This document shows, in pieces, positions 2,065-28,229 of a stretch of 32,000 bases of DNA. The notes under the pieces were generated by a model that saw only the letters and a program-made list of their open reading frames with translations, did no database searches and was not told the DNA's origin. The first letter of the stretch is position 1. Every line of letters starts with the position of its first letter. A program made the position numbers and the translations under genes. Source of the stretch: Nitrosococcus oceani ATCC 19707 (GTDB lineage Bacteria > Pseudomonadota > Gammaproteobacteria > Nitrosococcales > Nitrosococcaceae); NCBI RefSeq assembly GCF_000012805.1, contig NC_007484.1, forward strand, positions 150,001 to 182,000. Direction: 5' to 3'.

Positions 2065-3111
2065 ATGACCCTAAACCGAGATATGGTTTCCCCCCAAGAA
2101 GATCGTGGGGAAAAAGCAGTTGAATTTTCGCTACGTCCTGCCAGATTAGCCGATTATGTAGGACAACCCCAGGTGCAAGAGCAGATGGAGGTTTTTATTC
2201 CTGCTGCCCGGGCCCGGCATGAGGCCCTTGACCACGTACTTATTTTTGGCCCCCCAGGGCTGGGTAAGACCACTCTCTCCCATATTATTGCCAATGAGTT
2301 GGAAGTGAATCTGCGGCAAACTTCTGGACCGGTACTGGAACGGCCTGGCGATCTGGCTGCTTTGCTTACCAATCTGGAGCCTCGGGATGTACTTTTTATC
2401 GATGAAATTCATCGCTTAAGCCCAGTGGTGGAGGAAGTGCTTTATCCGGCCATGGAGGATCGTCAGATTGATATTATGATTGGTGAGGGTCCGGCGGCGC
2501 GATCCATCAAACTGGATTTGGTGCCTTTTACCTTGGTGGGGGCGACCACCCGGGCAGGATTGTTGACTTCTCCTCTGCGGGATCGCTTTGGTATCGTGCA
2601 ACGCCTAGAATTTTATGCGGTAGATCATTTAGTTTTGATTGTGGAACGTACGGCCCGTATTCTTGGCATGGCGATGGAAAAAGAGGGCGCCTTGGAGATT
2701 GCGCGCCGTTCCCGCGGAACGCCGCGAATTGCTAACCGCCTGCTGCGGCGAGTGCGGGATTATGCCGAAATCAAGGGAGATGGCCAGGTAACCCGCCAGG
2801 TAGCGCAAAAGGCCCTGGATTTGCTAGACGTGGATAGCCATGGTTTTGATACCATGGACCGCAAGTTGCTGTTAGCGATGCTTGAGAAATTCGATGGCGG
2901 GCCGGTGGGTGTCGATAGTCTAGCAGCCGCCATTGGCGAAGAGCGGGGTACTATTGAAGATGTCATAGAGCCATTTTTACTTCAGCAGGGATTCGTTATG
3001 CGTACGCCGCGAGGCCGAATGGCAACCCGCCATGCCTATCTTCATTTTGGTTTAAAACCGGCTGTAAAGATGGTGCCACAAGAAGTTTCTGATCTTTTTC
3101 CCAATGAATGA
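2065..3111 (+). CDS. ruvB: Holliday junction DNA helicase RuvB
   Basis: 348 aa with Walker [10 protein letters not shown], Walker [10 protein letters not shown] and sensor region [16 protein letters not shown]. Confidence 0.95.
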
Positions 3112-3511
3112 ATTTGTCTGGCCAGTGCGTGTTTACTATGAGGACACGGACAGCGGTGGCGTGGTTTATTATGCTAATTATCTCAAGTTTATGGAACGGG
3201 CCCGTACCGAGTGGTTGCGCAGCCTGGGTTTTGAGCAGGATGTTTTGCTCAATGAACAGGGGTTGTTATTTGTGGTACGCTCCTTGCAATTAGATTATTT
3301 GCGGCCAGGGCGCTTTAATGATTGGCTGAAGGTTCATAGCCATCTCCTGGAGCGTGGACGCGCCAGTTTGGCTTTTGCCCAGACGGTGCGGCGCGGGGAG
3401 CAAACGCTCCTCTGCCAGGCCGAAGTGAAGGTGGTTTGCCTAAATGCTCAAACCTTTCGCCCTTGTCCCATTCCTAAACTGATACTTGCGGAGATTACCG
3501 GTGACTGTTGA
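3104..3511 (+). CDS. ybgC: Tol-Pal-associated acyl-CoA thioesterase (4HBT/hotdog fold)
   Basis: 135 aa with [27 protein letters not shown], typical of YbgC. ATG 3104 overlaps the ruvB stop. It lies immediately upstream of tolQ. Confidence 0.85.
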
Positions 3512-4178
3512 TCTCTCTCTTCTGGATTTAATTACAGGTGCCAGCTTCTTGGTGCAATTGGTGATATTGATACTGCTAATTATTTCCGTGATTGCTTGGA
3601 CTCTTATCTTCCGTAAACGCAGCGAGCTGAAGCAGGCCAGGGAGGAGGCCGACGAGTTTGAAGATCGGTTTTGGTCGGGGAAAGAACTCAATAGCCTCTA
3701 CGCTGAACTAGCTGCCCAAGAGCTCCCGCCTGGGGGCATGGAAGGTATCTTTCTCGCGGGTTTCAGCGAGTTTGCACGTTTGCGCAAGCAGGCTGGCGTG
3801 GAGCACCGAACGGTATTGGATGGAACCCAGCGGGCGATGCGGGTTTCCTTGGCCCGAGAAATAGATATGCTGGAGGCTTCGCTGCCGTTTTTGGCCACAG
3901 CTGGTTCCACCAGCCCCTATATCGGCCTATTTGGCACCGTATGGGGAATCATGAATTCGTTCCGAGGCTTGGGCAATGCTCATCAAGCCACTTTAGCTAT
4001 GGTGGCGCCAGGGATTGCCGAGGCGCTTATCGCCACCGCCATGGGGCTGTTTGCCGCTATTCCGGCGGTGATTGCCTATAATCGCTATGCTTATGAAGTG
4101 GAGCGCCTGGCCAACCGCTATGATACCTTTGTAGAGGAATTCTCTACTATTCTTCAGCGCCAGATTCATACTGTTTAA
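3486..4178 (+). CDS. tolQ: Tol-Pal system protein TolQ (MotA/TolQ/ExbB channel)
   Basis: Three predicted TM segments and the conserved SPYIGLFGTVWGIMNSF and GIAEALIATAMGL motifs. The ORF track opens at TTG 3486. GTG 3501, preceded by GGAG at 3490-3493, is the more likely start. Confidence 0.9.
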   Translation: MRRLPVTVDLSLLDLITGASFLVQLVILILLIISVIAWTLIFRKRSELKQAREEADEFEDRFWSGKELNSLYAELAAQELPPGGMEGIFLAGFSEFARLRKQAGVEHRTVLDGTQRAMRVSLAREIDMLEASLPFLATAGSTSPYIGLFGTVWGIMNSFRGLGNAHQATLAMVAPGIAEALIATAMGLFAAIPAVIAYNRYAYEVERLANRYDTFVEEFSTILQRQIHTV

Positions 4179-4190
4179 GTCTAGCCCCCC

Positions 4191-4637
4191 ATGTATACTC
4201 TTCAGCAACGCAAGCGGCGCCGGCTCCTGGCGGAAATCAACGTGGTGCCCTACATTGATGTCATGTTGGTGTTATTGGTGATTTTCATGATTACGGCGCC
4301 GATGCTGACTCAGGGAGTTAAGGTTGATCTACCCCGGGCAGGCTCTAAGCCGGTAAAGCCGCCGGAGGATGAGCGGCCTTTGTTGATCAATGTGGACGCC
4401 CAAGGGCGTTATTATATTAATATAGGCGAAACGCCAGACCAGCCTGTTACAGCAGATAAGCTTTTAGAGGTAGTTACTTTGGTGCTGCGCCATAAGCCTG
4501 ATACCCCCATTCTTATAGGAGGGGATCGCCAGGTTTCCTATGGCGCCGTGGTGAAGATAATGGCCCTGCTACGGCAGGCAGATGTTTCCCAACTCGGACT
4601 CATTACAGAGCCGCCGCCCCCGCAGGAATCTCGCTAA
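4191..4637 (+). CDS. tolR: Tol-Pal system protein TolR (ExbD/TolR family)
   Basis: 148 aa with N-terminal EINVVPYIDVMLVLLVIFMITAP TM helix typical of ExbD/TolR. Positioned between tolQ and tolA. Confidence 0.88.
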   Translation: MYTLQQRKRRRLLAEINVVPYIDVMLVLLVIFMITAPMLTQGVKVDLPRAGSKPVKPPEDERPLLINVDAQGRYYINIGETPDQPVTADKLLEVVTLVLRHKPDTPILIGGDRQVSYGAVVKIMALLRQADVSQLGLITEPPPPQESR

Positions 4638-4647
4638 TTTATTATCC

Positions 4648-5604
4648 ATGGAGAATCCACGCCAGAAATGGTTCGCCTTTGCACTGGCTCTTTTGGTCCA
4701 CGGTATTTTATTTGCTGTGTTGGTGATTAGTCTGGGCTGGACTCCTAAACCCGAGCCAGTCAATATTGCCCCGGCGCAGATTGTCCAAGCCACTGTCGTA
4801 GATAAGGAGAAGCTGTTAGCGGAAGCCGCCCAGCGGCGGCAAGCAGAACAGGATGCACTAGCCCGGCAGCAGGCCCTAGTGCAAAAACGGGAAGCAGCTG
4901 AACGGCAGCGGGCAGAAGCCCAGCGCCAGCAGCAGGCGAGAGCGGAACAGGCCAGGCGGGAAACCCAAGAACAACAGGCATTGGAGCAAAAACAGCAGGA
5001 GGAACAAGCCCGGCTTAAACGACTAGAGGCGGAGCGGCAGGCAAAGGAAGAAGCGGCCCGCCGTCAGGCGGAAGCCGAGAAAAAGCGCGCTGAGGAGAAA
5101 AAGCGCCAAGCCGAGGCCGAGAAGCGGCGGTTGGAGGAAGAACGGCGTCGGGCTGAGGCAGCCAAACGAAAAGCGGAAGAAGAGCGTAAAAAGATTGAGG
5201 CGGCTAAACGCAAGGCGGAGGAGGAACGCAAAAAAGCAGAAGCGGCCCGCCGCCAGCAGGAACTTCAGGACCGTATCGAGGCGGAGGAGAACGCCGCTCA
5301 AGTTGAGGCTGCCCGTAATCGCTTTTTAACGCAAGTAAAAATGCGAGTACAGCGTTACTGGATCCGCCCCCCGAGCGCCCGCGATGATCTTGTGGTTTTA
5401 CTGCAAGTAGAAATGCTACCCAGCGGCGAGGTGCGCAATGTGAAAGTGGCTAAGAGCAGCGGTGACCGAGCCTTTGATCGCTCGGGAGAAGCAGCGGTTT
5501 ATAAAGCTGCCCCTTTGCCAATACCGGCCGAGTCAGCGGCGGCAGAAGATTTCTTACCTAGATTTAATTTTAAATTCTGTTCTGATCCTTCTAATTGTAA
5601 ATGA
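4648..5604 (+). CDS. tolA: Tol-Pal system protein TolA
   Basis: I place the start at ATG 4648 (MENPRQKWFAFALALLVHGILFAVLV, a TM anchor). The ORF-track start 4582 lies inside tolR. The protein has a long A/E/K/R/Q-rich helical domain II and a C-terminal globular TolA-III-like domain. Its stop overlaps the tolB start. Confidence 0.82.
   Translation: MENPRQKWFAFALALLVHGILFAVLVISLGWTPKPEPVNIAPAQIVQATVVDKEKLLAEAAQRRQAEQDALARQQALVQKREAAERQRAEAQRQQQARAEQARRETQEQQALEQKQQEEQARLKRLEAERQAKEEAARRQAEAEKKRAEEKKRQAEAEKRRLEEERRRAEAAKRKAEEERKKIEAAKRKAEEERKKAEAARRQQELQDRIEAEENAAQVEAARNRFLTQVKMRVQRYWIRPPSARDDLVVLLQVEMLPSGEVRNVKVAKSSGDRAFDRSGEAAVYKAAPLPIPAESAAAEDFLPRFNFKFCSDPSNCK
5158..5241 (+). repeat. Two tandem 42-bp (14-aa) repeats inside tolA domain II
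   Basis: AAKRKAEEERKKIE / AAKRKAEEERKKAE. The units are 13/14 identical at protein level, but 10 of the 14 codons differ synonymously. Confidence 0.9.
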
Positions 5605-6905
5605 TGAACACGAGAGTTTGGTGTAAAATTATAGGGATGTTGGCGCTGCTAGTGTGGCTAGTGTCTTCGCCCAGTGTTTTTGCCGTGCTCACCATTGAAA
5701 TCACCGGTGGCACGGAAGCAGCGTTACCTATTGCCATTGTCCCCTTTCAGAATGAAGGGAGCACTCCCCCTGAGAATGTGGCCGCTGTCATCGCTGCCGA
5801 TTTGGCCCGCAGCGGGCGCTTTGCCCCGTTGCCAGAGGAAGACCTGATTTCCCGCCCTCGCAATGCTTCTGATATCCAGTTCCAGGATTGGCGGCGGCTG
5901 GGTTCGGAAGGGTTGGTGATTGGAAAGGTGATCTCTTTAGGTGCGGACCGTTATGAAGTGCGCTTTCAACTCTTTGATATCTATAAGGAAGAGCAATTAG
6001 TAGGACGCCGTTACCAAGTTCCAGCGGCAGGACTGCGCCATCTAGCCCATCAAATTGCTGATCTTATCTACGAGACCTTGACCGGTGAAAAAGGAATTTT
6101 TACTACTCATATTGCCTTTGTGACCGTTTCTAGGGCTGCCCATGGAGCTAAACAATATTCCCTGCAAGTAGCCGATGTAGATGGCCATAATCCCCATACT
6201 ATTCTGCGCTCGAAGGAACCCATTTTATCGCCGGCCTGGTCCCCCGATGGGACTCAGCTCGCCTATGTGTCCTTCGAGCGCAGGCGCTCGGAAGTTTTCG
6301 TTCAGGAATTGCGCACAGGGCAGCGACAATCCGTAGCCTCTTTTTCTGGGATTAACAGCGCCCCCGATTGGTCTCCGGATGGAGGCAAACTTGCTCTGGT
6401 CCTCTCCAAGGAAGGTAATCCGGAAATTTATATTCGTGATTTGGCAACCGGCAGGCTTACCCGTCTTACCCATAATACTGCCATTGATACCGAGCCCGCT
6501 TGGGCGCCTGATGGAGGGAGTATTGTCTTTACTTCGGATCGGGGAGGGCGGCCTCAACTTTATCAGATTCCGGTTTCAGGGGGACGAGCGCAACGTTTAA
6601 CCTTCGATGGAGCCTATAATGCTTCTGCTTCGTTTGCGCCGGACGGCCGCCGCTTGGCTTTAATTCATGGGGATAAGGGACAGTTTCATATTGCCGTATT
6701 GAATTTACAAAGTAAGGAATTGCAGGTGCTGACCGAGACTCGGATGGATGAATCACCAAGCTTTGCCCCCAATGGCCGAATGATTCTTTATGCCACCTCG
6801 AGTCCTCAGGGAGGCGTCTTAGCCGCCGTCTCCACCGACGGTCGGGTTCGCCAGCGTTTAGCGCAGCAAGGTGATGAAGTCCGGGAACCCGCCTGGTCCC
6901 CTTGA
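5601..6905 (+). CDS. tolB: Tol-Pal system beta-propeller protein TolB
   Basis: 434 aa with a signal peptide ending SVFA. Repeated blade motifs: SPAWSPDG, APDWSPDG, EPAWAPDG, SFAPDG, SFAPNG, EPAWSP. Confidence 0.93.
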   Translation: MMNTRVWCKIIGMLALLVWLVSSPSVFAVLTIEITGGTEAALPIAIVPFQNEGSTPPENVAAVIAADLARSGRFAPLPEEDLISRPRNASDIQFQDWRRLGSEGLVIGKVISLGADRYEVRFQLFDIYKEEQLVGRRYQVPAAGLRHLAHQIADLIYETLTGEKGIFTTHIAFVTVSRAAHGAKQYSLQVADVDGHNPHTILRSKEPILSPAWSPDGTQLAYVSFERRRSEVFVQELRTGQRQSVASFSGINSAPDWSPDGGKLALVLSKEGNPEIYIRDLATGRLTRLTHNTAIDTEPAWAPDGGSIVFTSDRGGRPQLYQIPVSGGRAQRLTFDGAYNASASFAPDGRRLALIHGDKGQFHIAVLNLQSKELQVLTETRMDESPSFAPNGRMILYATSSPQGGVLAAVSTDGRVRQRLAQQGDEVREPAWSP

Positions 6906-6938
6906 ACTAAAAAATAGAATCTTTAAGGAGCTCTAGCG

Positions 6939-7502
6939 ATGCGTCTAGTTATTCTCTTTTTTCTGCTAGCGGGGATTTATGGGTTAGTGGGATGTGCGGG
7001 CGGTACCGCTACCACTCAAGGCGGGCCTCCGGATGTTGTCGTGGAGGAACGAGGCGCTTCCCCTTATCCTGAAGGTGAAGCCTTGGAAGAGGAAAGCGCC
7101 ACCACCTGGGGAATCGGCGAAGGAGCCGCCTATCAAGGCGATCCCCTGGCCGATCCTGCTAGTCCTCTGGCCAGCCGGGTGGTTTACTTTGAATTTGATA
7201 GCAGCGAGATTCAGCAAGATGATCGGCCCATTGTGGAAGCTCATGGCGGTTATCTGGCAAAACACCCCGATATCAAGGTGACTCTGGAAGGCCATACTGA
7301 TGAGCGGGGTTCTCGAGAATATAATTTGGCTTTAGGCGAACGGCGGGCCAACGCGGTGCGCAGTTTAATTCTTTTGATGGGAGCCTCGGAAGACCAAGTT
7401 GAAGTAGTAAGCTATGGTGAGGAGCGGCCAGCAGTGGATGGCCAGGATGAAGGTGCTTGGCAGCTCAATCGTCGGGTCGAAATCCTTTACCCAGGAGAGT
7501 AA
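6939..7502 (+). CDS. pal: Peptidoglycan-associated lipoprotein Pal
   Basis: 187 aa with lipobox LVGC (Cys19) and an OmpA-like C-terminal domain (TLEGHTDERGSREYNLALGERRA, NRRVEI). AAGGAG RBS at 6925-6930. Confidence 0.92.
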   Translation: MRLVILFFLLAGIYGLVGCAGGTATTQGGPPDVVVEERGASPYPEGEALEEESATTWGIGEGAAYQGDPLADPASPLASRVVYFEFDSSEIQQDDRPIVEAHGGYLAKHPDIKVTLEGHTDERGSREYNLALGERRANAVRSLILLMGASEDQVEVVSYGEERPAVDGQDEGAWQLNRRVEILYPGE

Positions 7503-8275
7503 TGATGGTGTCGTGGTGTCGGGGCCGTTGGTTATTGGCGGGGGGGGTGCTGTGGGCCCAGCTATCAGTGGCATCTGGGGCTGAAGAGGTTGAGGTGATC
7601 GACCCAGGCGCATTGGAGCAGCGCCTGCAGCAGATAGAGCGTATCATCGAGGGACAGGGATTGTCTGAGTTGTTATCGCAGATGGCGGAATTGGAAGCTA
7701 ACGTACGGCGGCTTCAGGGAGAGAGCGAGGAACTGCGGTATGAGATGGATAATCTCAAAAGACAGCAGCGGGAATTATACGTGGATTTGGACCGGCGGTT
7801 ACAAAAATTAAGCACTTCCGGGGAAAGTTTATCCCCCCTCTTGCCCTCGGAGGCGACGGAAGAAGTTGCAGAGGAAGTGCTCGTTGATTCCGGGGAACAA
7901 ACTTACCAGGCCGCCTTGGAATTGCTTAAGGAAGGGCGCTATGAAGAGGCAATTGCCGCGTTTGACCAGTTTCCACAGCAGTACCCCGATAGCCGTTACC
8001 GGCCCAATGCCCAATACTGGCTGGGAGAAGCCCGGTACATGCTGGGTGACTTTAATGCTGCCGCCGACACTTTTCAGGCCCTGGTGGAACAATACCCGGA
8101 GAGTGCCAAGGTTCCCGATGCGATGCTCAAACAAGGATTGGCTTATTATGAGTTAGCGCAATGGGAACAAGCAAAAGCTCAATTCCAGGCAGTCATGACC
8201 CGCTATCCCGCTTCTACCGCTAGCCGCTTAGCCGAAGAGCGTTTCGAGAAAATGAAGCGGGAAGGTCATCCTTGA
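7502..8275 (+). CDS. cpoB: Tol-Pal system protein YbgF/CpoB (coiled coil + TPR)
   Basis: I place the start at ATG 7502 (TAATG overlap with the pal stop, GGAGAG upstream). The track start 7457 lies inside pal. The protein has a hydrophobic N-terminus, a coiled-coil region and a C-terminal TPR region (YQAALELLKEGRYEEAIAAF, YRPNAQYWLGEARY). Confidence 0.85.
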   Translation: MMVSWCRGRWLLAGGVLWAQLSVASGAEEVEVIDPGALEQRLQQIERIIEGQGLSELLSQMAELEANVRRLQGESEELRYEMDNLKRQQRELYVDLDRRLQKLSTSGESLSPLLPSEATEEVAEEVLVDSGEQTYQAALELLKEGRYEEAIAAFDQFPQQYPDSRYRPNAQYWLGEARYMLGDFNAAADTFQALVEQYPESAKVPDAMLKQGLAYYELAQWEQAKAQFQAVMTRYPASTASRLAEERFEKMKREGHP

Positions 8276-16000: not shown

Positions 16001-16208
16001 CGTAGCCATGTTGGGATTAACCCCCATGCTGTTCGCAGAGGGTCCGGGATCAGAAGTACAACGGCCCTTGGCTGTGGTTGTTATCGGAGGATTGATTAGT
16101 TCGACCGCGCTCACCCTGATTGTGGTGCCTGTCCTCTACCGTTGGTTTGATGTGCGCCGCAGAGGGGAAGGCGGACAGGTTGAATTTGAGGGGAAAAGAG
16201 ATTCATAG
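13071..16208 (+). CDS. Heavy-metal-efflux type RND permease (CusA/CzcA family)
   Basis: 1045 aa with 12-TM RND architecture. The TM4 region LGGLAIAIGLIVDGSVVVVEN fits the HME-RND signature. The N-terminus has DAFPDVTNIQVQV, typical of CzcA/CusA. Confidence 0.92.
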   Translation: MVKSLIHGALEQRVVIVVVALVLLGFGLRAPSQLSMDAFPDVTNIQVQVATEALGRSPEEMERFITVPVEIAMTGLPGLTEMRSLNKSGLSIITLVFTDETDVYFARQLVMERLIGVQDRLPPGVTPVLGPVSTGLGEVYQYTLQRPDDGGRALTPAELIERRTIQDWVVRPLLRSIPGVAEINSQGGYVKQYHVLVDPDRLHHYQISLKEIEEALIRNNANSGGGVLPHYAEQYLIRGLGLIASIEDIGNIILKEFGGTPIYIRDVASIRIGHEVRQGAIIKNGVSEQVSGIVLMIRGGNAMEVVGRVKEKVAEINEQGLLPGGLEIVPYYDRTDLVGAALNTVTKTLLEGVVLVIVILFVFLGDIRSSFIVVCTLVLTPLLTFMVMNRYGISANLMSLGGLAIAIGLIVDGSVVVVENTFRYLSERRNTGESKTRIVLEAAVEVGKPVIFGVGIIIVVFLPLFTLEGMEGKIFAPLALTISIALSISLLLSLVLSPVLCSYVLKGGSEEDTRLIAWLKRGYLKLLAWALNWRITVVLSSVLLLGLALSLFPYLGKSFIPVMKEGALTPQINRVAGMSLSESIRMEMYATRLIREVPGVEMVVSKLGRGESPADPVGPNESDPIVTLKPRAEWPEGWTQDDIDAAIRDKLKALPGVQIVLSQPIAERVDEMVSGVKSQLAIKLFGDDLSALKRTADDIARLLRTVEGTRDLRVERVSGQQYLLVDVNRHAIARHGINVADVHSVIETAIRGKVATHIYEGERRFAALVRFPESNRNSPEAISRILLTSASGARVPIEDLADVRLEEGPARISRESAKRRIVVGANLVDRDMGGYVDEVQQKIAEQIKLPEGYFLVWGGQFENMERAMARLTIIVPLTIAIIFFLLFVLFNTVRLAALIILVLPFASIGGIVALFLTGEYLSVPASVGFIALWGIAVLNGVVLVSYIRSLRDGGLEQWEAIVQGCAQRFRPVLMTATVAMLGLTPMLFAEGPGSEVQRPLAVVVIGGLISSTALTLIVVPVLYRWFDVRRRGEGGQVEFEGKRDS

Positions 16209-16594
16209 GGCTTTTTGAGGAATACCAATTGAAAATGGATTGATAATTCGCAGATCTTAGCCCTTTTTGCCTTTTATATCCCTACTGGCTACCCGTTACT
16301 TCGGCGGAATAGAAAATGAGAATCTCCCAAGGGCAGAAATTGTATCGTCGATTATATTTTAATCAATTCCCACACTCCACGCTGCTGACAGAGCCAATCA
16401 AATTCTTCGCGTAATAGATGCTGATTGGCTTTTGCTTCTATTCTTCCTATGATATGGCTATCACATAGTTTGACCTATTGCCGCCGCCTTGAAGAAAATT
16501 TGCGCGAGGCAATGGGGTTAACTGCCAAGCTATTTTACATTTAAGCGATAAATTTTGTTAGGCTTAAGAGCACTCAAATTAAACTGAGGAAGTA

Positions 16595-17374
16595 ATGAGG
16601 AAAAGATACCGGATACAGTTCCCAAAAGCTAAATTATCTAGTTGCAAGCAAGACGAAGCTTACTTCTATCTTCAAGAAGAGAATGGCAGAAGAAAAATAA
16701 GATTTCATGATTATAGTGAAATTTATCAAAAACAAGATTTATACGAGCAAATCTTTTATGAGCGCCTGCAATGTTCATCCCCAAGCAAAGTATCCTCTAT
16801 ACTCGAAGCAGCGGTAAAACAGTCCCAAGATAATTTCTCTGAACTTCGGATATTAGATTTGGGCGCAGGTAATGGCATGATGGGGGATGAGCTAAAAAAA
16901 CATGGGGTTTCCCGCTTAATAGGGATAGATATAGTTCCTGAAGCCTATGAGGCAACCATACGAGATAGACCAGGGATATATGATGCCTATTATGTTGAAG
17001 ATTTCACAAGATTAGATAATGATAAAAAGGAGGAAATAAAAACCTGGAACTGTGATTGTATGGTAACAGTCTCCGCGCTTGGTTTTTCCGATATTCCAGC
17101 AAAGGTATTTATAGAGGCGTTTAACATTATTAAGAATGAGGGGTGGTTAGCCTTTAACATTAAAGAAACCTTTTTCAATATTAGTGACGAATCAGGTTTT
17201 TCAAAAATGATTCGGGAATTAATATTTTCTAAATATATTGATATATATTGTATTGAACGCTACCGGCATAGATTCTCAATAGATGGAGAGCCGTTATATT
17301 ATTTCGCGGTTGCAGGAAGAAAAAATTTAGATATTCCCAGTAATTTTTTGGATTCAAAAAATATCCTAGCCTAA
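16595..17374 (+). CDS. Class I SAM-dependent methyltransferase, substrate unknown
   Basis: 259 aa with motif I ILDLGAGNGMMG and the post-I acidic residue in LIGIDIV. GAGGAAG RBS. Lies in a visibly AT-rich stretch. Confidence 0.7.
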   Translation: MRKRYRIQFPKAKLSSCKQDEAYFYLQEENGRRKIRFHDYSEIYQKQDLYEQIFYERLQCSSPSKVSSILEAAVKQSQDNFSELRILDLGAGNGMMGDELKKHGVSRLIGIDIVPEAYEATIRDRPGIYDAYYVEDFTRLDNDKKEEIKTWNCDCMVTVSALGFSDIPAKVFIEAFNIIKNEGWLAFNIKETFFNISDESGFSKMIRELIFSKYIDIYCIERYRHRFSIDGEPLYYFAVAGRKNLDIPSNFLDSKNILA

Positions 17375-17426
17375 GCAAGCAGTAGATAATTTTTACGATT
17401 AAATTTAAATAAAGTAATTGCAGTTA

Positions 17427-17924
17427 ATGAAGACTAAATCACCGCCGCTTTCAAGTTGGATTTTTATCGTTACTATCCTGTGGATAGGTTTCTTGCTTGC
17501 GATTAGCTTTATGGAAGCACCTCTTAAATTCTGTGCGCCTTCATTAACTTTACCCGTTGCCCTTGAAATTGGGTATATCGTTTTTCATGCTCTCAACCTT
17601 GTAGAAATTATATTTGCGGCCTTGATTCTTGCCGCTACCTATTTCGGCCTAACTTCTCGAAAATCTATCCTCTTTGCTGTTGGCGTTATAGGGATACTTA
17701 TTATTCAGACTGTCCTTCTTTTTACCAAATTAGATGCAAGAACGCTTGCTATCATCAATGGTCTAGAAACTTCATCCACGCCGTACCATATTGTCTACAT
17801 GGTAATGGAAGTTATCAAGTTAATAGGATTAGTGGTTTTAGCTTTTTATCAGCTGGGCGATTTTAGACTATCGGTTATAAAGTTAACCCGACAAAATCTA
17901 GAGAATCCTAATCGCGTCCGGTAA
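17427..17924 (+). CDS. Small integral membrane protein (about 4 TM), unknown function
   Basis: Four hydrophobic helices (WIFIVTILWIGFLLAISF, ALEIGYIVFHALNLVEIIFAALILAA, ILFAVGVIGILIIQTVLLF, IVYMVMEVIKLIGLVVLAF). The track start 17418 is TTG. ATG 17427 is more likely. Confidence 0.55.
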   Translation: MKTKSPPLSSWIFIVTILWIGFLLAISFMEAPLKFCAPSLTLPVALEIGYIVFHALNLVEIIFAALILAATYFGLTSRKSILFAVGVIGILIIQTVLLFTKLDARTLAIINGLETSSTPYHIVYMVMEVIKLIGLVVLAFYQLGDFRLSVIKLTRQNLENPNRVR

Positions 17925-18015
17925 CCAATAATTCTACCTTTTGGTATCTAGGGGAGAAGGTTAATTTCACAAGCATGGATGCCGCCCAGCAAAATTATTT
18001 CCCCAGGTGTTGCGT

Positions 18016-23655: not shown

Positions 23656-23811
23656 GCGTCATTGGATGGACCAAGTTGTATGGACTGTCAGTAAGCTACG
23701 AAAAACTTAATCAATCAATGGATTTTTATGGCTTGCGTTTAAGCTTAGCAGGGAAGTAGAAGGCAGAAACGAGTAGAAATTTATTTCTAATTATCTCGAA
23801 GGAAAAATAGC

Positions 23812-26800
23812 CTATTGCTCAGGCTGGTTTGAAAGCAGATCTAGCAGGAGGCGGCTAAAATCCTTAACCATCCCTTCATCATGGAGTAATTGGGCCGCCA
23901 TTTCATGGTGATTTTTTAAATTTTCCATTACGGTATGCTGCACTATCTGGGAGAAATCACTCGATGGGATGGGGTTCGGCCGCTGATCTTCCAGCTGAGC
24001 CGCTAGTGCCGGATTTTCAAGCAGCTTATCCTTGATAGCGTGTAAATAGTTTAATCGATCTCTGTCGCTGAGATATTCGCCTGCCAAGAGCGGCTTAAGG
24101 CGATTGATAAGAAGAGAACAGGACGCCTCTTTTCTCCAGGGATTTGCCCGCGATTCTCCGGTGGTGTTGTACGCGGGCTCTCCCAGAGATTCTTGTCGGG
24201 CTGCTTTGAATGTTCGTTCACAAATTTTATTCAGCCGGTAAGAGATGAATTCTCGCGGGGGTGAATCAATAGCTTCGCTCTGCTGCATCTCACCCAGGAG
24301 AGAGTATAGGTGGCGGGCATAGACATTGAGTTTTTCTAGTTCTTGATTGCCATAGTCTAGGATCTGGGAAAGATGTTCATAGCAATCAGCAAAGCTGAGC
24401 AGATTTTCTTTGAATCGGTCCAAGGCATTTTTTCTTTCCTCGGCCTGTTTAAAACTGTGGCAAGCATTCTCTCTGCGTATCCTGTCGCCGGCAGCTGTTG
24501 CTTCCTGTTTGGCTTGTTGGGCGGTCTGGATAATTTTTATGTTTTCCTGATACTGCTCCCGGAAACGTTCCACCGCGGATTGGCAATGATAGTTTAGGCG
24601 CTCTGTGGTTTGCTCGGTATCGAAAAAGGCGGCAGCAAAGGACTCCACATCTTGCCAATTGTAAATGCGTGCCTCATCCAGATAAGATTGAAGCTGGTAA
24701 ATTAATTTAGGATCAGAGACAGAAAAAATCTCTGCGGCAGGATGATAGGGCCGGAAGGCATGCAGTACTTGCTCGGCGGGGTTAGCAAAGTCGAGAATAA
24801 AGGGCGCCTCTTTGCCGGGGTGGATCTCGCCCAGGTGGGATAGCGTTTGAACGCAATCGGTACCGGTAAATTTTTTATCTATATACAGGGCGCAGAGCTG
24901 GGATGATGAGAATTTCGCCTGATGTTTGTGAGCGCCAATGATCACCTGATGATCATTGGTTAGAGTCTGGACGTCCTGATACTGCTGAGCAGCGATGTAG
25001 CGTTCAAAAGTCCGTTGGTAACGTTGCGCGGCTTGGCAGGAATGGGTGGTGAGTATGGCTTTGGCTTGGCCATTCATCAGGTGAACCACTTGGTGGCGGA
25101 AATGTTCGGTGATTATCTCGGCTTTTTGTACGATATTGAGGTTGTCAGGGGACTGCCCCATCCAAGGGAAAATACGGCAGGAAAGATTTTCTTCTTGATT
25201 GAGTGAAAGTTGCTGCTGGGCCAGTCTGGCGGCCGTGACGTAAGTCATATAGCGTTTGAGCGGGTTGAGCATGAAGCCTTCTTCAATGGCCTGTTGTAGA
25301 GTATAGTGATGGAAAGGCTCGGGTTGGTTGTTATCAGAGAAAGGAAGCGCCGGGCTAGTCGGTTGTCCAAATAACGCCAGGGTTTTCTCTTGAGGAGCAG
25401 CCGTGAAGAGAAAATAGCTGATATGGGGCGAGGGGGGACTGTTTGTTAGGGAGGTGATCAAAAGATCTTCAGTATTGGTTGTAATCTCCTTTTGTGCCGA
25501 CTCAGATAACAGCACTTCCCCTAGCCTAGAGAACAGACTTCTGCTGGTAGGAAAAGGAGCCTGGTGAGCAATAACAGCGAAAGTATGTTCCTTAAAAATA
25601 ACTTGGTTTTGGATGAGGGCCAACACGGAAGGAAAGGCTTGGGGCGTAACCGTGATAATGTGGATGCCGGCTGCCGCCAATGTTGCTGCTAACCATTCGG
25701 CTTGGCAGTTTTGAGCAATTTCTTGAGTAAGCCGGTATATCTGTTTTCTCTCATACTTAGGTGAGTAGAGTGTGTTCTGGAGCTGGGCGTGGAATTCATG
25801 GCAGTCGGTGACCACGATGACCCCGGTAAAAATTTTCTGATGCTTCCTGTCAGCTAATGCAGCTACATGGTGGGCAGTCCAAGCAATAGAATAGCGTTGC
25901 CCCGAACCAGCGCCGTGTTGAATGAGATACTGCTGCCCTGGCCCTTCCTGGCGGACGGCCCCTGCTAATTGGGTAACCATCTCCCATTGATGAAAGCGGG
26001 GGAAGACCAGTGTTTCCGAGGGGAATTCTTTTTCTTCTTTCCAGGCAGCGTTTTTTCTCTCGAAATGGATAAATTGACCTAGCAGATCAAGCCAGGTGTC
26101 GCACTCAAAAATTTTTTGCCATAGATAATCCGTAGGGTAACCTGCTGGATTGGGAGGATTACCAGCGCCACCTTTATGGCCTTGATTGAAAGGCGTGAAA
26201 TGGGTTGCCAGACCTTGTAAGCGGGTGCTTACCCAAACTTCTTCCTGGCTGACGGCAAAATGTACTAGGGCGCGTTTTCTAAAGGCCAGCAGCGGTTCTT
26301 CATGGCCCATACGGGGATCGTGAGGGGGACAATCCCGTTGGTATTGACGGATGATAGCAGAGAGGGAGGGCTGGGATTCCGAGGTCGCTTTTAAAGTAGC
26401 TACCGGCACCCCGTTAACAAAAAATACCAGATCGAGGTAGGGAATGTAGTCTTCGTGAGTATAGGGAGAATAAGACAGGTTAGGCACCACCCGCAGCCGG
26501 TTTTTTTTATAGCGGGCCAGGGTTCCCGAATGGAATTCCTGGTAGGAGTGAAACTGGCAGAGGCTAATATCATTCTCCTGTTCCTTAAAACCATGCCGTA
26601 GCACCTCTAAGGCTCCGCGCTGGTCCATTTCTTCAGCCGCCCGCCTAAGAAGTATTTGGACGGCTTGATCGGGAGCGTCCTGGATAAGTTTTGGCAGCGG
26701 TTGGGAATGGCACTCCCGGATAAAGCCGATAAGATCTTCCGGGTACAGGGCCAAGACGGGATCGTAAAGCTCTGCTTTTCCCTTCTGCCAGCCATGACTA

Positions 26801-26919
26801 AGGAGGTGATCAATAATGACTTGTTGAAGCGCCGTTTTCTGGACCTTATCCATAGCAATATTCGGCGGGCTATTCTGGGTAGGCATGAGATTTAGCTCTA
26901 ACTCTCCAGTAGCCCTCAT
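23812..26919 (-). CDS. HsdR-family (type I restriction R-subunit-like) protein with substituted nuclease and helicase motifs
   Basis: 1035-aa uninterrupted ORF. It resembles HsdR along its whole length (LQQVIIDHLLSHGW, LDLVFFVNGVPV, FTPFNQG..GGAGNPPNPAGYPTDYLW, LIQHGAGSG, YFLFTAAP, QQAIEEGFMLNPL, LYIDKKF..QTLS). The Walker A Lys, Walker B DE, nuclease Glu and motif VI Arg positions are all replaced (see findings). The start codon is uncertain (ATG 26919, 26886 or 26853). Confidence 0.7.
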   Translation of the reverse strand: MRATGELELNLMPTQNSPPNIAMDKVQKTALQQVIIDHLLSHGWQKGKAELYDPVLALYPEDLIGFIRECHSQPLPKLIQDAPDQAVQILLRRAAEEMDQRGALEVLRHGFKEQENDISLCQFHSYQEFHSGTLARYKKNRLRVVPNLSYSPYTHEDYIPYLDLVFFVNGVPVATLKATSESQPSLSAIIRQYQRDCPPHDPRMGHEEPLLAFRKRALVHFAVSQEEVWVSTRLQGLATHFTPFNQGHKGGAGNPPNPAGYPTDYLWQKIFECDTWLDLLGQFIHFERKNAAWKEEKEFPSETLVFPRFHQWEMVTQLAGAVRQEGPGQQYLIQHGAGSGQRYSIAWTAHHVAALADRKHQKIFTGVIVVTDCHEFHAQLQNTLYSPKYERKQIYRLTQEIAQNCQAEWLAATLAAAGIHIITVTPQAFPSVLALIQNQVIFKEHTFAVIAHQAPFPTSRSLFSRLGEVLLSESAQKEITTNTEDLLITSLTNSPPSPHISYFLFTAAPQEKTLALFGQPTSPALPFSDNNQPEPFHHYTLQQAIEEGFMLNPLKRYMTYVTAARLAQQQLSLNQEENLSCRIFPWMGQSPDNLNIVQKAEIITEHFRHQVVHLMNGQAKAILTTHSCQAAQRYQRTFERYIAAQQYQDVQTLTNDHQVIIGAHKHQAKFSSSQLCALYIDKKFTGTDCVQTLSHLGEIHPGKEAPFILDFANPAEQVLHAFRPYHPAAEIFSVSDPKLIYQLQSYLDEARIYNWQDVESFAAAFFDTEQTTERLNYHCQSAVERFREQYQENIKIIQTAQQAKQEATAAGDRIRRENACHSFKQAEERKNALDRFKENLLSFADCYEHLSQILDYGNQELEKLNVYARHLYSLLGEMQQSEAIDSPPREFISYRLNKICERTFKAARQESLGEPAYNTTGESRANPWRKEASCSLLINRLKPLLAGEYLSDRDRLNYLHAIKDKLLENPALAAQLEDQRPNPIPSSDFSQIVQHTVMENLKNHHEMAAQLLHDEGMVKDFSRLLLDLLSNQPEQ

Positions 26920-26948: not shown

Positions 26949-28229
26949 TTACTCTTCGCCATCGGAATAGTCGAGCATTTCAGTTTTGGTAGCGACATGT
27001 TCGGGGAGCTCCTCGATAGGCCCCGGTTTATCAGCTTTAATTCCGATATGATAGGCGGCGTAACCAGGTATCGTCACCTGATTAAGGGCCATGCCCAGGA
27101 GTTGGCCATGATAAGGTGACACGATAGGTATCTGTTGATTGGTAATCGGATTAGTTATGATGCCTAATTGCTGCCCTGCCTTAATCGGATCGCCGAGTTC
27201 GACTTCAGAGAGTAGAATCCCGGCCTGGTGGGTCCGTATCCACTTAGTTTGGTGGAACACGGCTTCTGGAGCCGATTTTGTTTCGCCTTCATCTACCATG
27301 CCTAATTCGTTCATCAGGTTTTTTATTCCTTTTAAACCTTGGTGAACTTCCTGGAGTTGCAGGCGTTTAGGCTCTCCAGCTTCAAGGGTAATACTGGGAA
27401 TGTCCCTATCCATGGCGGCCCGCCGTAGTGTTCCGGAGACGCCTTTACTGTGAACGACGGCAACGCCACCAAAACTACGAGCTAATTTTAGGATATTGGG
27501 ATGATTTAAATCTGCTCGCACTTGGGGCAGATTAGTCCGATGAAAAGAACCGGTGTGCAGGTCTACTAAGACATCGCAGTGGGTAATCACCTGTTGGAAA
27601 AAAGAATGGGCAATACGAGCGGCCGAACTGCCTTCGGGACTTCCAGGGAAATGCCGATTCAGATCCCGCCGATCAGGCAAATAACGGGAACTGCGGCGAT
27701 AGCCATACATATTGACAATAGGCACGCCAATCACAGCACCGTTAAGCTGGGAGGATTTAAGCGCGGCAATCGTTTGATGGACCATCGCAATGCCATTGAT
27801 CTCATCGCCATGGACCGCAGCGGTGAGGCAAAGCGTCGGCCCTGGGTGGCTACCATTCACCACTAATATTGGCGCGGAGACAGGGATGCCTTCAAAGGTG
27901 TGGCTCAGGGTCCAGGAGAGTCGTTTTTTTACACCGGGGTTGATGGTTTCCCCGAGCAATTGCAAGGGCTCCTGGGTGGCGGCCTTGCCCTGAATGGTGG
28001 CGCTACCCTCGGAAGGAAGGTTTTTTGGGGAGTCTGGCTCTACCCGCTTCAAACTGCGGGAGATTTGAATGCTAGAGGCCGCGTCTTCTTGTTGTGCCTC
28101 TAGGGCTGCCGCTACGGTTGGCAGGATTAGCAGTAGCTGACTAGAAAATAATAGTCTGCATAGGCAATGATGGACATATTTTTTTGGGTGCTGAAATATC
28201 CGGCTATGGGGTTTGGTGTAGTCTTTCAT
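26949..28229 (-). CDS. Succinylglutamate desuccinylase/aspartoacylase (AstE/AspA, M14-like) family zinc hydrolase, probably exported
   Basis: 426 aa. A basic N-terminus is followed by the hydrophobic LLFSSQLLLILPTVAAALEA (signal/anchor). Zinc and catalytic positions look intact (AAVHGDEINGI, VLVDLHTG, ITLEAGEP). C-terminal lipoyl-like hairpin GDPIKAGQQLGII. The stop lies 29 nt upstream of the HsdR-like ORF. Confidence 0.8.
   Translation of the reverse strand: MKDYTKPHSRIFQHPKKYVHHCLCRLLFSSQLLLILPTVAAALEAQQEDAASSIQISRSLKRVEPDSPKNLPSEGSATIQGKAATQEPLQLLGETINPGVKKRLSWTLSHTFEGIPVSAPILVVNGSHPGPTLCLTAAVHGDEINGIAMVHQTIAALKSSQLNGAVIGVPIVNMYGYRRSSRYLPDRRDLNRHFPGSPEGSSAARIAHSFFQQVITHCDVLVDLHTGSFHRTNLPQVRADLNHPNILKLARSFGGVAVVHSKGVSGTLRRAAMDRDIPSITLEAGEPKRLQLQEVHQGLKGIKNLMNELGMVDEGETKSAPEAVFHQTKWIRTHQAGILLSEVELGDPIKAGQQLGIITNPITNQQIPIVSPYHGQLLGMALNQVTIPGYAAYHIGIKADKPGPIEELPEHVATKTEMLDYSDGEE

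Follow-up and report, generated by a model that had tools for sequence, protein, structure and literature searches.

Canonical HsdR proteins, such as the ~1050-aa family of Thiohalobacter, Thioalkalivibrio and Halomonas and EcoR124I HsdR (PDB 2W00, 6H2J and 7BST), have a four-part architecture consisting of a PD-(D/E)xK nuclease, RecA1, RecA2, and then helical and C-terminal domains. The C-terminal part of canonical HsdR is its presumed docking region for the M2S1 methyltransferase, with a contact proposed for the helical domain. The closest analogy among pseudoenzymes, for a non-catalytic member of a nuclease-helicase lineage, is eukaryotic XPF, whose degenerate SF2 helicase-like domain, derived from archaeal Hef, serves as a binding scaffold, while its partner ERCC1 carries a dead nuclease fold. 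Within the HsdR proteins themselves, engineered single-residue mutants of EcoR124I (for example K527A, Y736A and D796A), tested with their cognate methyltransferase, lose cleavage but keep methyltransferase assembly, and such cleavage-defective, assembly-competent subunits compete with the wild type in a trans-dominant effect (PMC5248579).

Noc_0160 of Nitrosococcus oceani ATCC 19707 shares the four-part architecture of canonical HsdR, but all of its catalytic motifs are substituted, 42 RecA2 residues are gone, its Pfam and NCBIfam matches are sub-threshold, and its site is part of the core chromosome, not of a restriction-modification (R-M) operon or island, with hsdM and hsdS partners not nearby. 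As in the EcoR124I mutants, which provide a model for site occupation, catalysis is defective and the C-terminal region is preserved, although Noc_0160 is an ancient, naturally occurring protein in which every motif rather than a single residue is lost, and its docking is predicted. Similarly, XPF and Noc_0160 both belong to nuclease-helicase lineages whose catalytic motifs degenerated, with selection for binding roles preserving the fold, but XPF-ERCC1 is from another family and domain of life and its role was shown experimentally, whereas that of Noc_0160 is one that we infer.

The gene lies at 173812-176919 of NC_007484, within the 32-kb stretch of DNA analysed here (the window); its annotation is that of a type I R subunit, and its REBASE name is NocAORF160P. 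An earlier sequence-only reading had described a full-length HsdR-family ORF, and its 1035 open codons do align end to end with intact HsdR. The likely true start, judged from the sequence, is M23 (ATG at 26851-26853), the equivalent of which is the start of intact homologues in the alignment; codons 4-22 have an omega of ~0.9, and the annotated length in other strains is 1013 aa.

Table 1 Features of Noc_0160 and its upstream neighbour, with positions in the window.
Feature	Position	Strand	Remarks
Noc_0160 ORF	23812..26919	-	1035 codons + stop; HsdR-derived, all catalytic motifs lost
N-terminal extension, 22 codons	26854..26919	-	Probably untranslated
Nuclease-like N-terminal domain, residues 23-270	26110..26853	-	Omega 0.15, N. 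oceani vs N. watsonii
PD-(D/E)xK core, degenerate	26383..26433	-	D163 kept; E to K177, K to T179
RecA1-like domain, residues 271-520	25360..26109	-	Omega 0.25
Walker A remnant GAGSGQRY	25891..25914	-	Family GSGKS; K341Q
Motif Ia remnant TDCHEFH	25789..25809	-	Family TDRTVLD
Walker B remnant HQAP	25555..25566	-	Family DEAH; HQAP in N. oceani and N. watsonii
Motif III remnant TAAP	25393..25404	-	Family TATP
RecA2 remnant, residues 521-730	24730..25359	-	Omega 0.40
RecA2 deletion junction, L653/T654	24946..24975	-	42 residues, in frame; common to all four Nitrosococcus species
Motif V remnant QAKFSSS	24901..24921	-	Family QTGFDQP
Motif VI remnant QTLSHLGE	24826..24849	-	Family QTLSRLNR; both arginines gone
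C-terminal half, residues 541-1035	23815..25299	-	Sole part kept in N. wardiae and N. halophilus
C-terminal domain, residues 939-1028	23836..24105	-	Omega 0.08-0.13; matches PADLOC PDC-S15 C-terminus
Terminator-like hairpin + T-run	23809..23825	-	Overlaps stop codon; consensus match only
Noc_0161, AstE/AspA-family deacylase	26949..28229	-	Constant same-strand upstream neighbour, all four species

Noc_0160 is 38-46% identical to intact HsdR proteins at 97% coverage (E = 0 to 1e-293) and keeps 67% of the family-invariant positions. A single-sequence search of PDB sequences with Noc_0160 returned nothing useful and a profile search was needed, in which the family profile matched EcoR124I HsdR (1e-12). 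An AF2 model built on a 118-sequence alignment (pLDDT 82.8), which replaced a discarded first AlphaFold model from 12 sequences (pLDDT 54.8), found EcoR124I HsdR in all of its top 15 Foldseek matches; as this model mainly mirrors the family alignment, it is taken as support for the fold only and not for function. Scores were below the Pfam gathering cut-offs for HSDR_N (24.4 bits versus 25.1) and SWI2_SNF2 (22.3 bits versus 26.7), while the ResIII, DEAD and NCBIfam profiles gave no match. Intact relatives in Thiohalobacter, Thioalkalivibrio and similar bacteria are placed in hsdM-hsdS-hsdR operons, and the ancestor of Noc_0160 was very probably a bona fide type I R subunit of this operon family. 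Evolution was strongly accelerated along the Nitrosococcus stem branch, which exceeds the intact relatives by ~0.46 substitutions per site, a value taken from relative distances alone because the long Nitrosococcus branch distorted midpoint rooting of the neighbour-joining tree.

The motif register was set by alignment with 10, then 116 intact homologues, anchored to EcoR124I HsdR by the profile search. All of the helicase-motif substitutions proposed in the sequence-only reading held in this register and at the coordinates given there: the Walker A Lys-to-Gln change (GSGKS to GSGQR), the altered motif Ia, the loss of DEAH in AHQAP, the change of TATP to TAAP in motif III, QAKFS in place of QTGFD with a deletion just before it (now sized at 42 residues and in frame) and the motif VI remnant. 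Profile, multiple and structure-based alignments likewise put no Lys or Asp-Glu at the Walker A and B sites. For the nuclease core, the reading was right that the acidic residue is lost but wrong in register, as it had Thr replacing Glu where the alignment gives Glu to K177 and Lys to T179; both changes are found in N. oceani and N. watsonii, breaking the nuclease triad, while the QxxxY motif (Q192, Y193) downstream of the core is kept. The motif losses of full-length Noc_0160 are common to N. watsonii, in which Walker A reads GSGQP, and motif VI is still SRLNR, with both arginines, in the truncated proteins of N. wardiae and N. halophilus. Across 149 diverse aligned sequences (145 representatives, 2 intact references and the 2 Nitrosococcus proteins), the K[ST] of Walker A is intact in 145 and the DE of motif II in 146, and the loss of several motifs is seen in just one further protein. 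It is thus highly probable that Noc_0160 cannot work as a canonical ATP-driven translocase-nuclease.

Synteny places the locus at the same core-chromosome site in all four Nitrosococcus species, where it is occupied in each. Orthologues were traced by exact-sequence look-ups; a full-protein contig search missed even N. watsonii, probably through masking. In N. wardiae and N. halophilus, the locus encodes the C-terminal half alone (481-498 aa), with the same RecA2 deletion as the full-length form, and this deletion is very probably older than the Nitrosococcus crown group. Two forms very probably persist: the full-length, catalytically dead protein of N. oceani and N. watsonii, and the C-terminal half only in the other two species. 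This distribution amounts to a natural deletion experiment that points to the location of the retained function, narrowing it to something that the C-terminal half would carry. Frames limited to the C-terminal half of HsdR also occur elsewhere, for example as 540-650 aa ORFs in Acinetobacter and Endozoicomonas and in the Limnohabitans HsdM-N/HsdR-C fusion P0333. However, these fragments look like recent pseudogenes of intact-type sequences, judged by appearance and not by constraint, whereas the Nitrosococcus remnant has an omega of 0.22 between species and carries an older deletion shared with full-length dead orthologues.

Omega, estimated by NG86 with bootstrap, was 0.225 (CI 0.184-0.285) between the full-length genes of N. 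oceani and N. watsonii, 0.221 (CI 0.166-0.290) between the truncated genes of N. wardiae and N. halophilus, and 0.080 (CI 0.061-0.106) for an intact HsdR pair; a caveat on these values is that maximum-likelihood dN/dS (Biopython) was higher (0.39-0.42), although unstable at high divergence. Purifying selection on Noc_0160 is thus very probably ~3-fold weaker than on active HsdR, with omega far below 1. Differences within the full-length pair cluster at third codon positions (p = 3e-13). In the same pair, the nuclease-like domain is the strongest-constrained domain, the RecA2 remnant is the most relaxed part, and the N- and C-terminal halves differ little (omega 0.21 versus 0.24), while the last ~100 residues show the strongest constraint in both pairs (omega 0.08-0.13). 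The frame is free of stops over all 1035 codons in N. watsonii and N. oceani, where a divergent strain that differs by 8 amino-acid changes was covered too, and over the 481-498 codons of the truncated genes in the other two species; the two alternative frames of the window strand that encodes Noc_0160 contain 35 and 55 stops. Constraint imposed by an overlapping gene was rejected, as the other frames and the opposite strand contain no ORF of at least 100 aa.

The gene is also transcribed in N. oceani, which can be stated with high confidence from published microarray data, where the Noc_0160 signal is clear (~7000, versus ~500 for dnaA and 2000-2900 for neighbouring genes) and falls two-fold on ammonium re-feeding after starvation (PMC3772326 supplement). 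Ancestry, catalytic incapacity, age of the deletion, selection, persistence of two forms and transcription are very likely to hold jointly. No partner genes were found near the locus: hsdM and hsdS are missing from the 32-kb window, as the sequence-only reading had noted for intact copies, and from within 10 kb of the gene in N. watsonii, N. wardiae and N. halophilus, and tblastn searches of the window and the orthologous loci found no decayed remnants of either. A limited genome scan for HsdM of the same family, which needs exact 8-mers, returned 15 loci, none of them from Nitrosococcus. The adjacent AstE/AspA-like gene was considered as a functional partner and rejected as unsupported: its transcript responds in the opposite direction (PMC3772326 supplement), its distance from Noc_0160 varies from 2 to 268 nt, and an outgroup homologue has no HsdR neighbour.

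A protein that has lost all catalytic motifs, yet remains intact, transcribed and under purifying selection throughout the genus, is most likely a domesticated non-enzymatic protein and not a decaying pseudogene. Noc_0160 would accordingly be a genus-wide HsdR-derived pseudoenzyme, in that catalytic residues are absent from a homologue of an enzyme and purifying selection continues after their loss. The selected activity would be non-catalytic binding, carried at least by the C-terminal half (RecA2 remnant, helical domain and C-terminal domain). The mechanism favoured here, tentatively and by analogy with the trans-dominant EcoR124I mutants, is that of an inert R subunit that would still dock on the methyltransferase cores of type I systems whose genes lie elsewhere in the genome. 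With R-subunit sites occupied by dead HsdR, restriction could be damped or gated, or methylation modulated. In favour of docking, N. oceani has several other type I systems (PMC7285500). Several observations count against docking: HsdR-methyltransferase docking is family-specific (PMC12707154), the C-terminal region of Noc_0160 is only ~37% identical to that of intact relatives, none of the four species has hsdM or hsdS within 10 kb, and the C-terminal half carries 14 fixed lineage-specific replacements at family-conserved sites. In addition, constraint in N. oceani and N. watsonii is no weaker on the N-terminal than on the C-terminal half, so a pure C-terminal docking model falls short. The occurrence of the C-terminal module alone in N. 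halophilus and N. wardiae is the basis for a narrower and rather doubtful version, in which this module would act as a stand-alone host-encoded regulator on type I methyltransferase cores and, as a naturally trans-dominant R subunit, would gate restriction or tune methylation.

The remnant may instead have been exapted outside restriction-modification, binding another stable host partner or DNA in a structural, regulatory or stress role, a reading that is possible but also less than probable. R-M content turns over fast even between N. oceani strains (PMC7285500), whereas Noc_0160 is stable genus-wide in a core site surrounded by housekeeping genes (ruvCAB, tol-pal, queCE and RND efflux) and not in a defence island; a stable host partner therefore fits better than a mobile R-M partner. 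The accelerated stem branch, the absence of hsdM and hsdS nearby and of same-family HsdM in the limited scan, and the transcript response to ammonium are in keeping with such a role. The 14 fixed replacements also favour it, but of the 186 positions of the C-terminal half that are conserved in the family, all four species keep 100, as expected if the ancestral interface were retained. Exaptation also has no candidate partner, as the sole constant neighbour, the AstE/AspA-like gene, responds oppositely and lacks an HsdR link outside the genus.

A functionless relic in slow decay, in which the constraint would reflect chance or the toxicity that misfolded or truncated products of a transcribed ORF would have, with selection acting against them, is improbable. 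No protein-level evidence for Noc_0160 was found, and this counts against function in general, as does the omega, which is at the relaxed end among neighbouring genes and exceeds that of the intact HsdR pair, but the bootstrap upper bound is 0.29 in both pairs, so that neither the disrupted frame nor the dN/dS near 1 of a unitary pseudogene is seen. One clade has lost half of the gene altogether, and the C-terminal-half-only ORFs of other genomes are probably pseudogene fragments; after the 5' deletion, however, the remnant kept a start codon and its frame in two species. The composition has drifted towards more C, H, Q and P and fewer D, K, R, V and G, while indels are all in frame and the ORF persists across divergences with dS above 1.5. 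The sequence-only reading had argued that the frame looks selected, and this agrees with the rounded full-length omega of 0.23 and with the stops expected under neutrality (14.4 for the full-length pair and 7.6 for the truncated pair) against the zero observed; neutral simulations (n = 3000) gave no stop-free replicate for either pair, and the neutral probability of no stop was ~6e-7 and 5e-4, respectively. The orthologues, which that reading had proposed to check, are free of frameshifts and not near a dN/dS of 1, with the second pair giving 0.22. Loss of expression or deletion would also be an easier answer to toxicity. That Noc_0160 is still an enzyme, acting as an ATPase and/or nuclease through relocated or non-canonical residues, is very improbable: D163 and QxxxY are kept, the nuclease domain is strongly constrained between N. 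oceani and N. watsonii, and reviews describe some pseudoenzymes with migrated catalytic residues (PMC10211241), but seven motifs in three domains are struck at once (including the Walker A Lys, both DEAH acidic residues and both motif VI arginines), a core strand region of RecA2 is missing through the 42-residue deletion, and neither the nuclease nor the RecA1 domain exists in two of the species.

The RefSeq label and the REBASE entry NocAORF160P, which denote a restriction endonuclease subunit, are almost certainly wrong for Noc_0160. Neither a conserved dead or orphan HsdR nor Noc_0160 itself turned up in searches of the literature, in line with the sequence-only reading, to which no characterised protein of this kind was known. 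Restriction-modification genes are usually viewed as either active or decaying, and Noc_0160 suggests a third fate, domestication as a pseudoenzyme in which catalysis is gone and selection is kept across a genus. If Noc_0160 is a natural docking regulator, it would be the first natural restriction motor subunit turned into a non-enzymatic regulator. Retained docking of the inert R subunit on methyltransferase cores would help to explain what the C-terminal domain of this HsdR family does, which is poorly understood, and would give a marine nitrifier of ecological importance a host-encoded means of modulating type I restriction or epigenetic methylation.

The HsdR-derived ORF on the minus strand (see table) is Noc_0160, listed in REBASE as NocAORF160P at NC_007484 173812-176919 (supplement, PMC3772326), so that a genome coordinate equals the window coordinate + 150000. 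Databases label it an R subunit (RefSeq/REBASE-type annotation), and the remaining two same-strand frames contain 35 and 55 stops. The protein is scarcely recognised by family libraries: Pfam HSDR_N (24.4 bits) and SWI2_SNF2 (22.3 bits) each fall under their own gathering score, NCBIfam returned zero matches, and PADLOC REase_I matched at 1.7e-9. The nearest proteins outside Nitrosococcus (~46% identity, ~1050 aa) carry the full HsdR domain set, and those that were looked up lie in hsdM-hsdS-hsdR operons; by descent, Noc_0160 is a member of the HsdR family. All intact homologues start at the position of M23, annotation begins at M23 in other N. oceani strains (1013 aa), and omega between N. 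oceani and N. watsonii is ~0.9 over the 22 codons upstream. These codons are probably not translated, and the true start is probably the M23 ATG at 26851-26853, with a good Shine-Dalgarno sequence absent at every candidate start.

Features of Noc_0160, with family motif sequences on the left of each arrow
Feature	Position in window	Strand	Observation
Noc_0160 ORF	23812-26919	-	1035 codons open
N-terminal extension as annotated	26854-26919	-	22 codons upstream of M23, the start position of all intact homologues
Nuclease motif			D163 kept; E-L-K -> K177-A-T179
Walker A			GSGKS -> GSGQR
Motif Ia			TDRTVLD -> TDCHEFH
Walker B			DEAH -> HQAP
Motif III			TATP -> TAAP
RecA2			42 residues deleted in frame, immediately before motif V
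Motif V			QTGFDQP -> QAKFSSS
Motif VI			SRLNR -> SHLGE

The motifs were read against 10, then 116, intact homologues, an alignment that bore out the positions assigned by eye in the sequence-only reading. That reading had also described the nuclease motif as substituted, with T in place of E; the motif is indeed altered, but the register was slightly off, the changes being E to K and K to T. The family profile matches EcoR124I HsdR (2W00 and related entries) at 1e-12 and pairs the family D...ELK, GSGKS, DEAH, QTGFD and SRLNR with D...ELK, GSGKT, DECH, LTGFD and SRTNR of that enzyme. Noc_0160 keeps 218 of the 324 columns invariant in ten intact homologues (67%), and those it has lost cluster at the motifs. 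An AlphaFold model built on a 118-sequence alignment (pLDDT 82.8, pTM 0.78) returned EcoR124I HsdR as all of the top 15 Foldseek matches in the PDB; this predicted structure confirms the fold assignment, though it mostly mirrors the family alignment and adds little else. As an enzyme, Noc_0160 is set apart from HsdR by every functional feature tested, and it cannot be a canonical translocase-nuclease.

Multi-motif loss is rare in this HsdR family, because nearly all of the 149 best representatives from an exhaustive search over 1.84 billion, aligned with reference sequences, keep the Walker A Lys, the Walker B DE and the motif VI arginines; the exceptions are the two Nitrosococcus proteins and a metagenomic singleton (P0213). 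In a further representative, P0268, the sole deviation is the residue following the Walker A Lys (GSGKG). P0213, encoded at 2113-4884 of an ENA metagenome contig (L014), is the sole other multi-motif-dead HsdR among these diverse representatives and reads EVA in the nuclease motif, GGGHG in Walker A and DSVH in Walker B, with motif VI still SRLNR. Its motif loss looks independent, but the protein is a singleton and its contig is only 4.9 kb long.

The syntenic N. watsonii orthologue (1034 aa, 83% identity) shares the substitutions and the deletion of Noc_0160, which indicates that the motifs were already dead in the common ancestor of the two species and that all later divergence accumulated in the dead state. 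Over that divergence dN/dS was 0.225 by NG86 (bootstrap 95% CI 0.184-0.285) and 0.415 by maximum likelihood in Biopython, compared with 0.06-0.21 for eight neighbouring genes and 0.080 (0.061-0.106) for an intact HsdR pair of similar dS from two Thiohalobacter genomes. Third codon positions hold 204 of the 399 nucleotide differences (p = 3e-13), and the only indels are of 2 and 1 codons. Neutral simulation of 399 substitutions with the observed transition bias introduced a mean of 14.4 stops (Poisson P(0) = 6e-7; stop-free replicates 0/3000) and yielded amino-acid identities of 0.73-0.79 versus the observed 0.83. The suspicion that the open frame reflected selection was thus well founded, given an omega of 0.225, no stop against the 14.4 expected and in-frame indels only. 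No ORF of at least 100 aa occurs in any other frame over Noc_0160, so there is no overlapping source of constraint. Within N. oceani, one divergent strain differs by 8 amino-acid changes with the frame intact, and the other assemblies read are nucleotide-identical over the gene. By domain, omega was 0.15 in the nuclease-like region, 0.25 in RecA1, 0.40 in the RecA2 remnant and 0.20 in the C-terminal helical region.

Distant intact homologues lie 1.05 substitutions/site from Noc_0160 versus 0.60 from its nearest intact relatives. The Nitrosococcus lineage is thus strongly accelerated, as would be expected if change along the stem branch, relaxed and/or adaptive, had come in a burst, and the frame was kept despite this acceleration. 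Compared with intact relatives, Noc_0160 is richer in Cys, His, Gln and Pro and poorer in Asp, Val, Lys, Gly and Arg. G is scarce on the coding strand of the gene, where the plus-strand GC skew is +0.13 to +0.21. The many R to C/H/Q, E to K/Q and D to H/N changes suggest relaxed selection together with a strand-specific mutation bias acting on a lagging-strand gene.

A second architectural form of the lineage occurs in N. wardiae, where the exhaustive search recovered a 481-aa 'hypothetical protein' (P0127) with 61% identity to residues 554-1030 of Noc_0160. Its gene begins 108 nt downstream of the orthologue of Noc_0161, the AstE/AspA-family gene upstream of Noc_0160, and HsdR homology sets in sharply at the counterpart of residue ~540 (FRQTIEEDFILDVLKRY), after a stop and unrelated sequence. 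An N-terminal remnant is absent from the N. wardiae locus, and no N-terminal-half protein of this lineage was found among the 1.84 billion representatives. In N. halophilus the protein is 498 aa long, and both its junction and its neighbouring genes are as in N. wardiae. The 42-residue RecA2 deletion is common to all four species, while in N. wardiae and N. halophilus motif VI is still SRLNR and motif V is less degraded. The likely order of events is that the RecA2 deletion arose in the genus ancestor, after which one clade would have lost the whole nuclease-RecA1 half and the motifs of the other would have decayed further by point change. A word-indexed search with P0127 missed the N. oceani and N. 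watsonii proteins, which are 59-61% identical to it and were expected at rank three, and a first genome scan did not recover N. watsonii even with an exact peptide pattern; negatives of these searches are accordingly not exhaustive.

The truncated form is similarly constrained. Between N. wardiae and N. halophilus omega was 0.221 (0.166-0.290), against 0.08-0.09 for its two downstream neighbours; no stop was seen where 7.6 were expected (stop-free replicates 0/3000) and all indels are in frame, so that in neither species pair are the orthologues full of frameshifts or dN/dS near 1. Across the two clades, omega was 0.11-0.16 at dS > 1.5. Sliding windows placed the strongest constraint in the last ~100 residues of both pairs (omega 0.08-0.13), where conservation among the four dead proteins equals that among active enzymes. 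The last ~80 residues (window 23836-24075, residues ~950-1030) match the C-terminus of PADLOC candidate PDC-S15, as do residues 964-1045 of P0011 and 395-473 of P0127 (E 1e-5 to 2e-10), in dead and intact members alike; this is a recurrent C-terminal module, and in the dead proteins no other part is as strongly constrained.

C-terminal-half-only HsdR ORFs also occur in large contigs or complete genomes of other bacteria, for example P0280/P0281 (649 aa, 3.5-Mb contigs), P0322 of Endozoicomonas (613 aa) and P0283 of Acinetobacter baumannii (540 aa); these are probably split or frameshifted pseudogenes. An 806-aa protein of Limnohabitans sp. MMS-10A-160 (P0333) combines in a single ORF HsdM_N, the initial third of N6_Mtase and an HsdR C-terminal half (T1R_D3-like onwards), most simply a deletion fusing hsdM to hsdR in a decaying operon. 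These fragments and the fusion look like common pseudogene debris.

The window belongs to the core chromosome and carries yebC, ruvCAB, ybgC-tolQRAB-pal-cpoB, queE/queC and an RND efflux system, then genes for a methyltransferase, FAD protein, HlyIII, CHRD protein and Na+/H+ exchanger. It contains no hsdM or hsdS, in line with the sequence-only reading, which saw no intact copy, and it contains no mobile element or defence island; tblastn with the HsdM and HsdS of two intact operons likewise detected no trace of either gene in N. oceani or N. watsonii. In all four species the gene immediately upstream is the AstE/AspA-like one (gaps of 29, 2, 108 and 268 nt); outside the genus, a 52%-identical homologue precedes a lipid A acyltransferase instead. 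A terminator-like hairpin and T-run at 23809-23825(-) overlaps the Noc_0160 stop codon and opposes the convergent exchanger gene, although such matches are no commoner in the region than in shuffled sequence. At 16001-18000 GC content drops to 0.42 and 0.36 (versus ~0.50-0.55 elsewhere), over the gene of a SAM-dependent methyltransferase (16595-17374) and a hypothetical ORF of 168 aa (17418-17924); this low-GC patch is conserved in N. watsonii and, if foreign, would be an old insertion. In the N. watsonii locus (L001) a piece of a Y1 transposase gene (IS200/IS605-type) separates the CHRD gene from the HlyIII gene (16931-17179), and additional DUF1254/DUF1214 and mechanosensitive-channel genes lie on the upstream side of the AstE-like gene (3761-8164). 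All of these are absent from N. oceani; local rearrangements thus surround an otherwise syntenic locus.

In published array data (PMC3772326), the Noc_0160 signal was ~6500-7600 in starved, control and hydroxylamine-treated cells and ~3500-4000 once cells had had ammonium for 4 h (ratio 0.52), while dnaA gave ~500, gyrB 3000-6000 and Noc_0159 1000-2800, intensities that are not absolute. Noc_0161 rose on ammonium addition (ratio 1.7-1.8). Noc_0160 clearly has a transcript, and its level does not simply follow that of Noc_0161: the gap of 29 nt would be compatible with an operon, yet in starved cells 4 h after ammonium the two genes move in opposite directions (~2-fold down, ~1.7-fold up), which speaks for a separate promoter or for mRNAs that differ in stability.

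The Noc_0160 lineage is therefore HsdR-derived, unable to act as a canonical translocase-nuclease, under purifying selection through the genus in two architectural forms and transcribed in N. oceani, and it falls within the usual definition of a pseudoenzyme. We infer a non-catalytic function at least in the C-terminal half, since that half is common to both forms and includes the segment under the strongest constraint. In HsdR proteins that have been characterised, contact with the M2S1 methyltransferase is attributed to this region. EcoR124I HsdR mutants unable to cleave yet assembling compete with the wild type and are trans-dominant (PMC5248579), and N. oceani has several further type I systems (PMC7285500). 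Together these tentatively favour a mechanism in which the inert R subunit would dock on type I methyltransferase cores and would damp or gate restriction, or modulate methylation. However, R-M subunit exchange is family-specific (PMC12707154), a limited genome scan found no same-family hsdM in Nitrosococcus, and turnover of R-M systems is seen even among strains of N. oceani (PMC7285500), but Noc_0160 is stable in a core locus, fitting a stable host partner. Docking alone also leaves unexplained an N-terminal half as constrained as the C-terminal half in N. oceani and N. watsonii (omega 0.21 versus 0.24). A binding function re-targeted away from R-M is a possibility of nearly the same weight as docking. 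A functionless relic is improbable in view of the stop-codon and omega statistics of two independent pairs, and residual enzymatic activity is very improbable indeed.

The sequence-only reading had supposed such a protein to be uncharacterised, and literature searches likewise turned up no account of an HsdR that is conserved yet catalytically dead. The dead Nitrosococcus HsdR can be classed as a pseudoenzyme from a well-known enzyme family; the case is clean, its statistics are robust, and the two forms make up a deletion series of natural origin.
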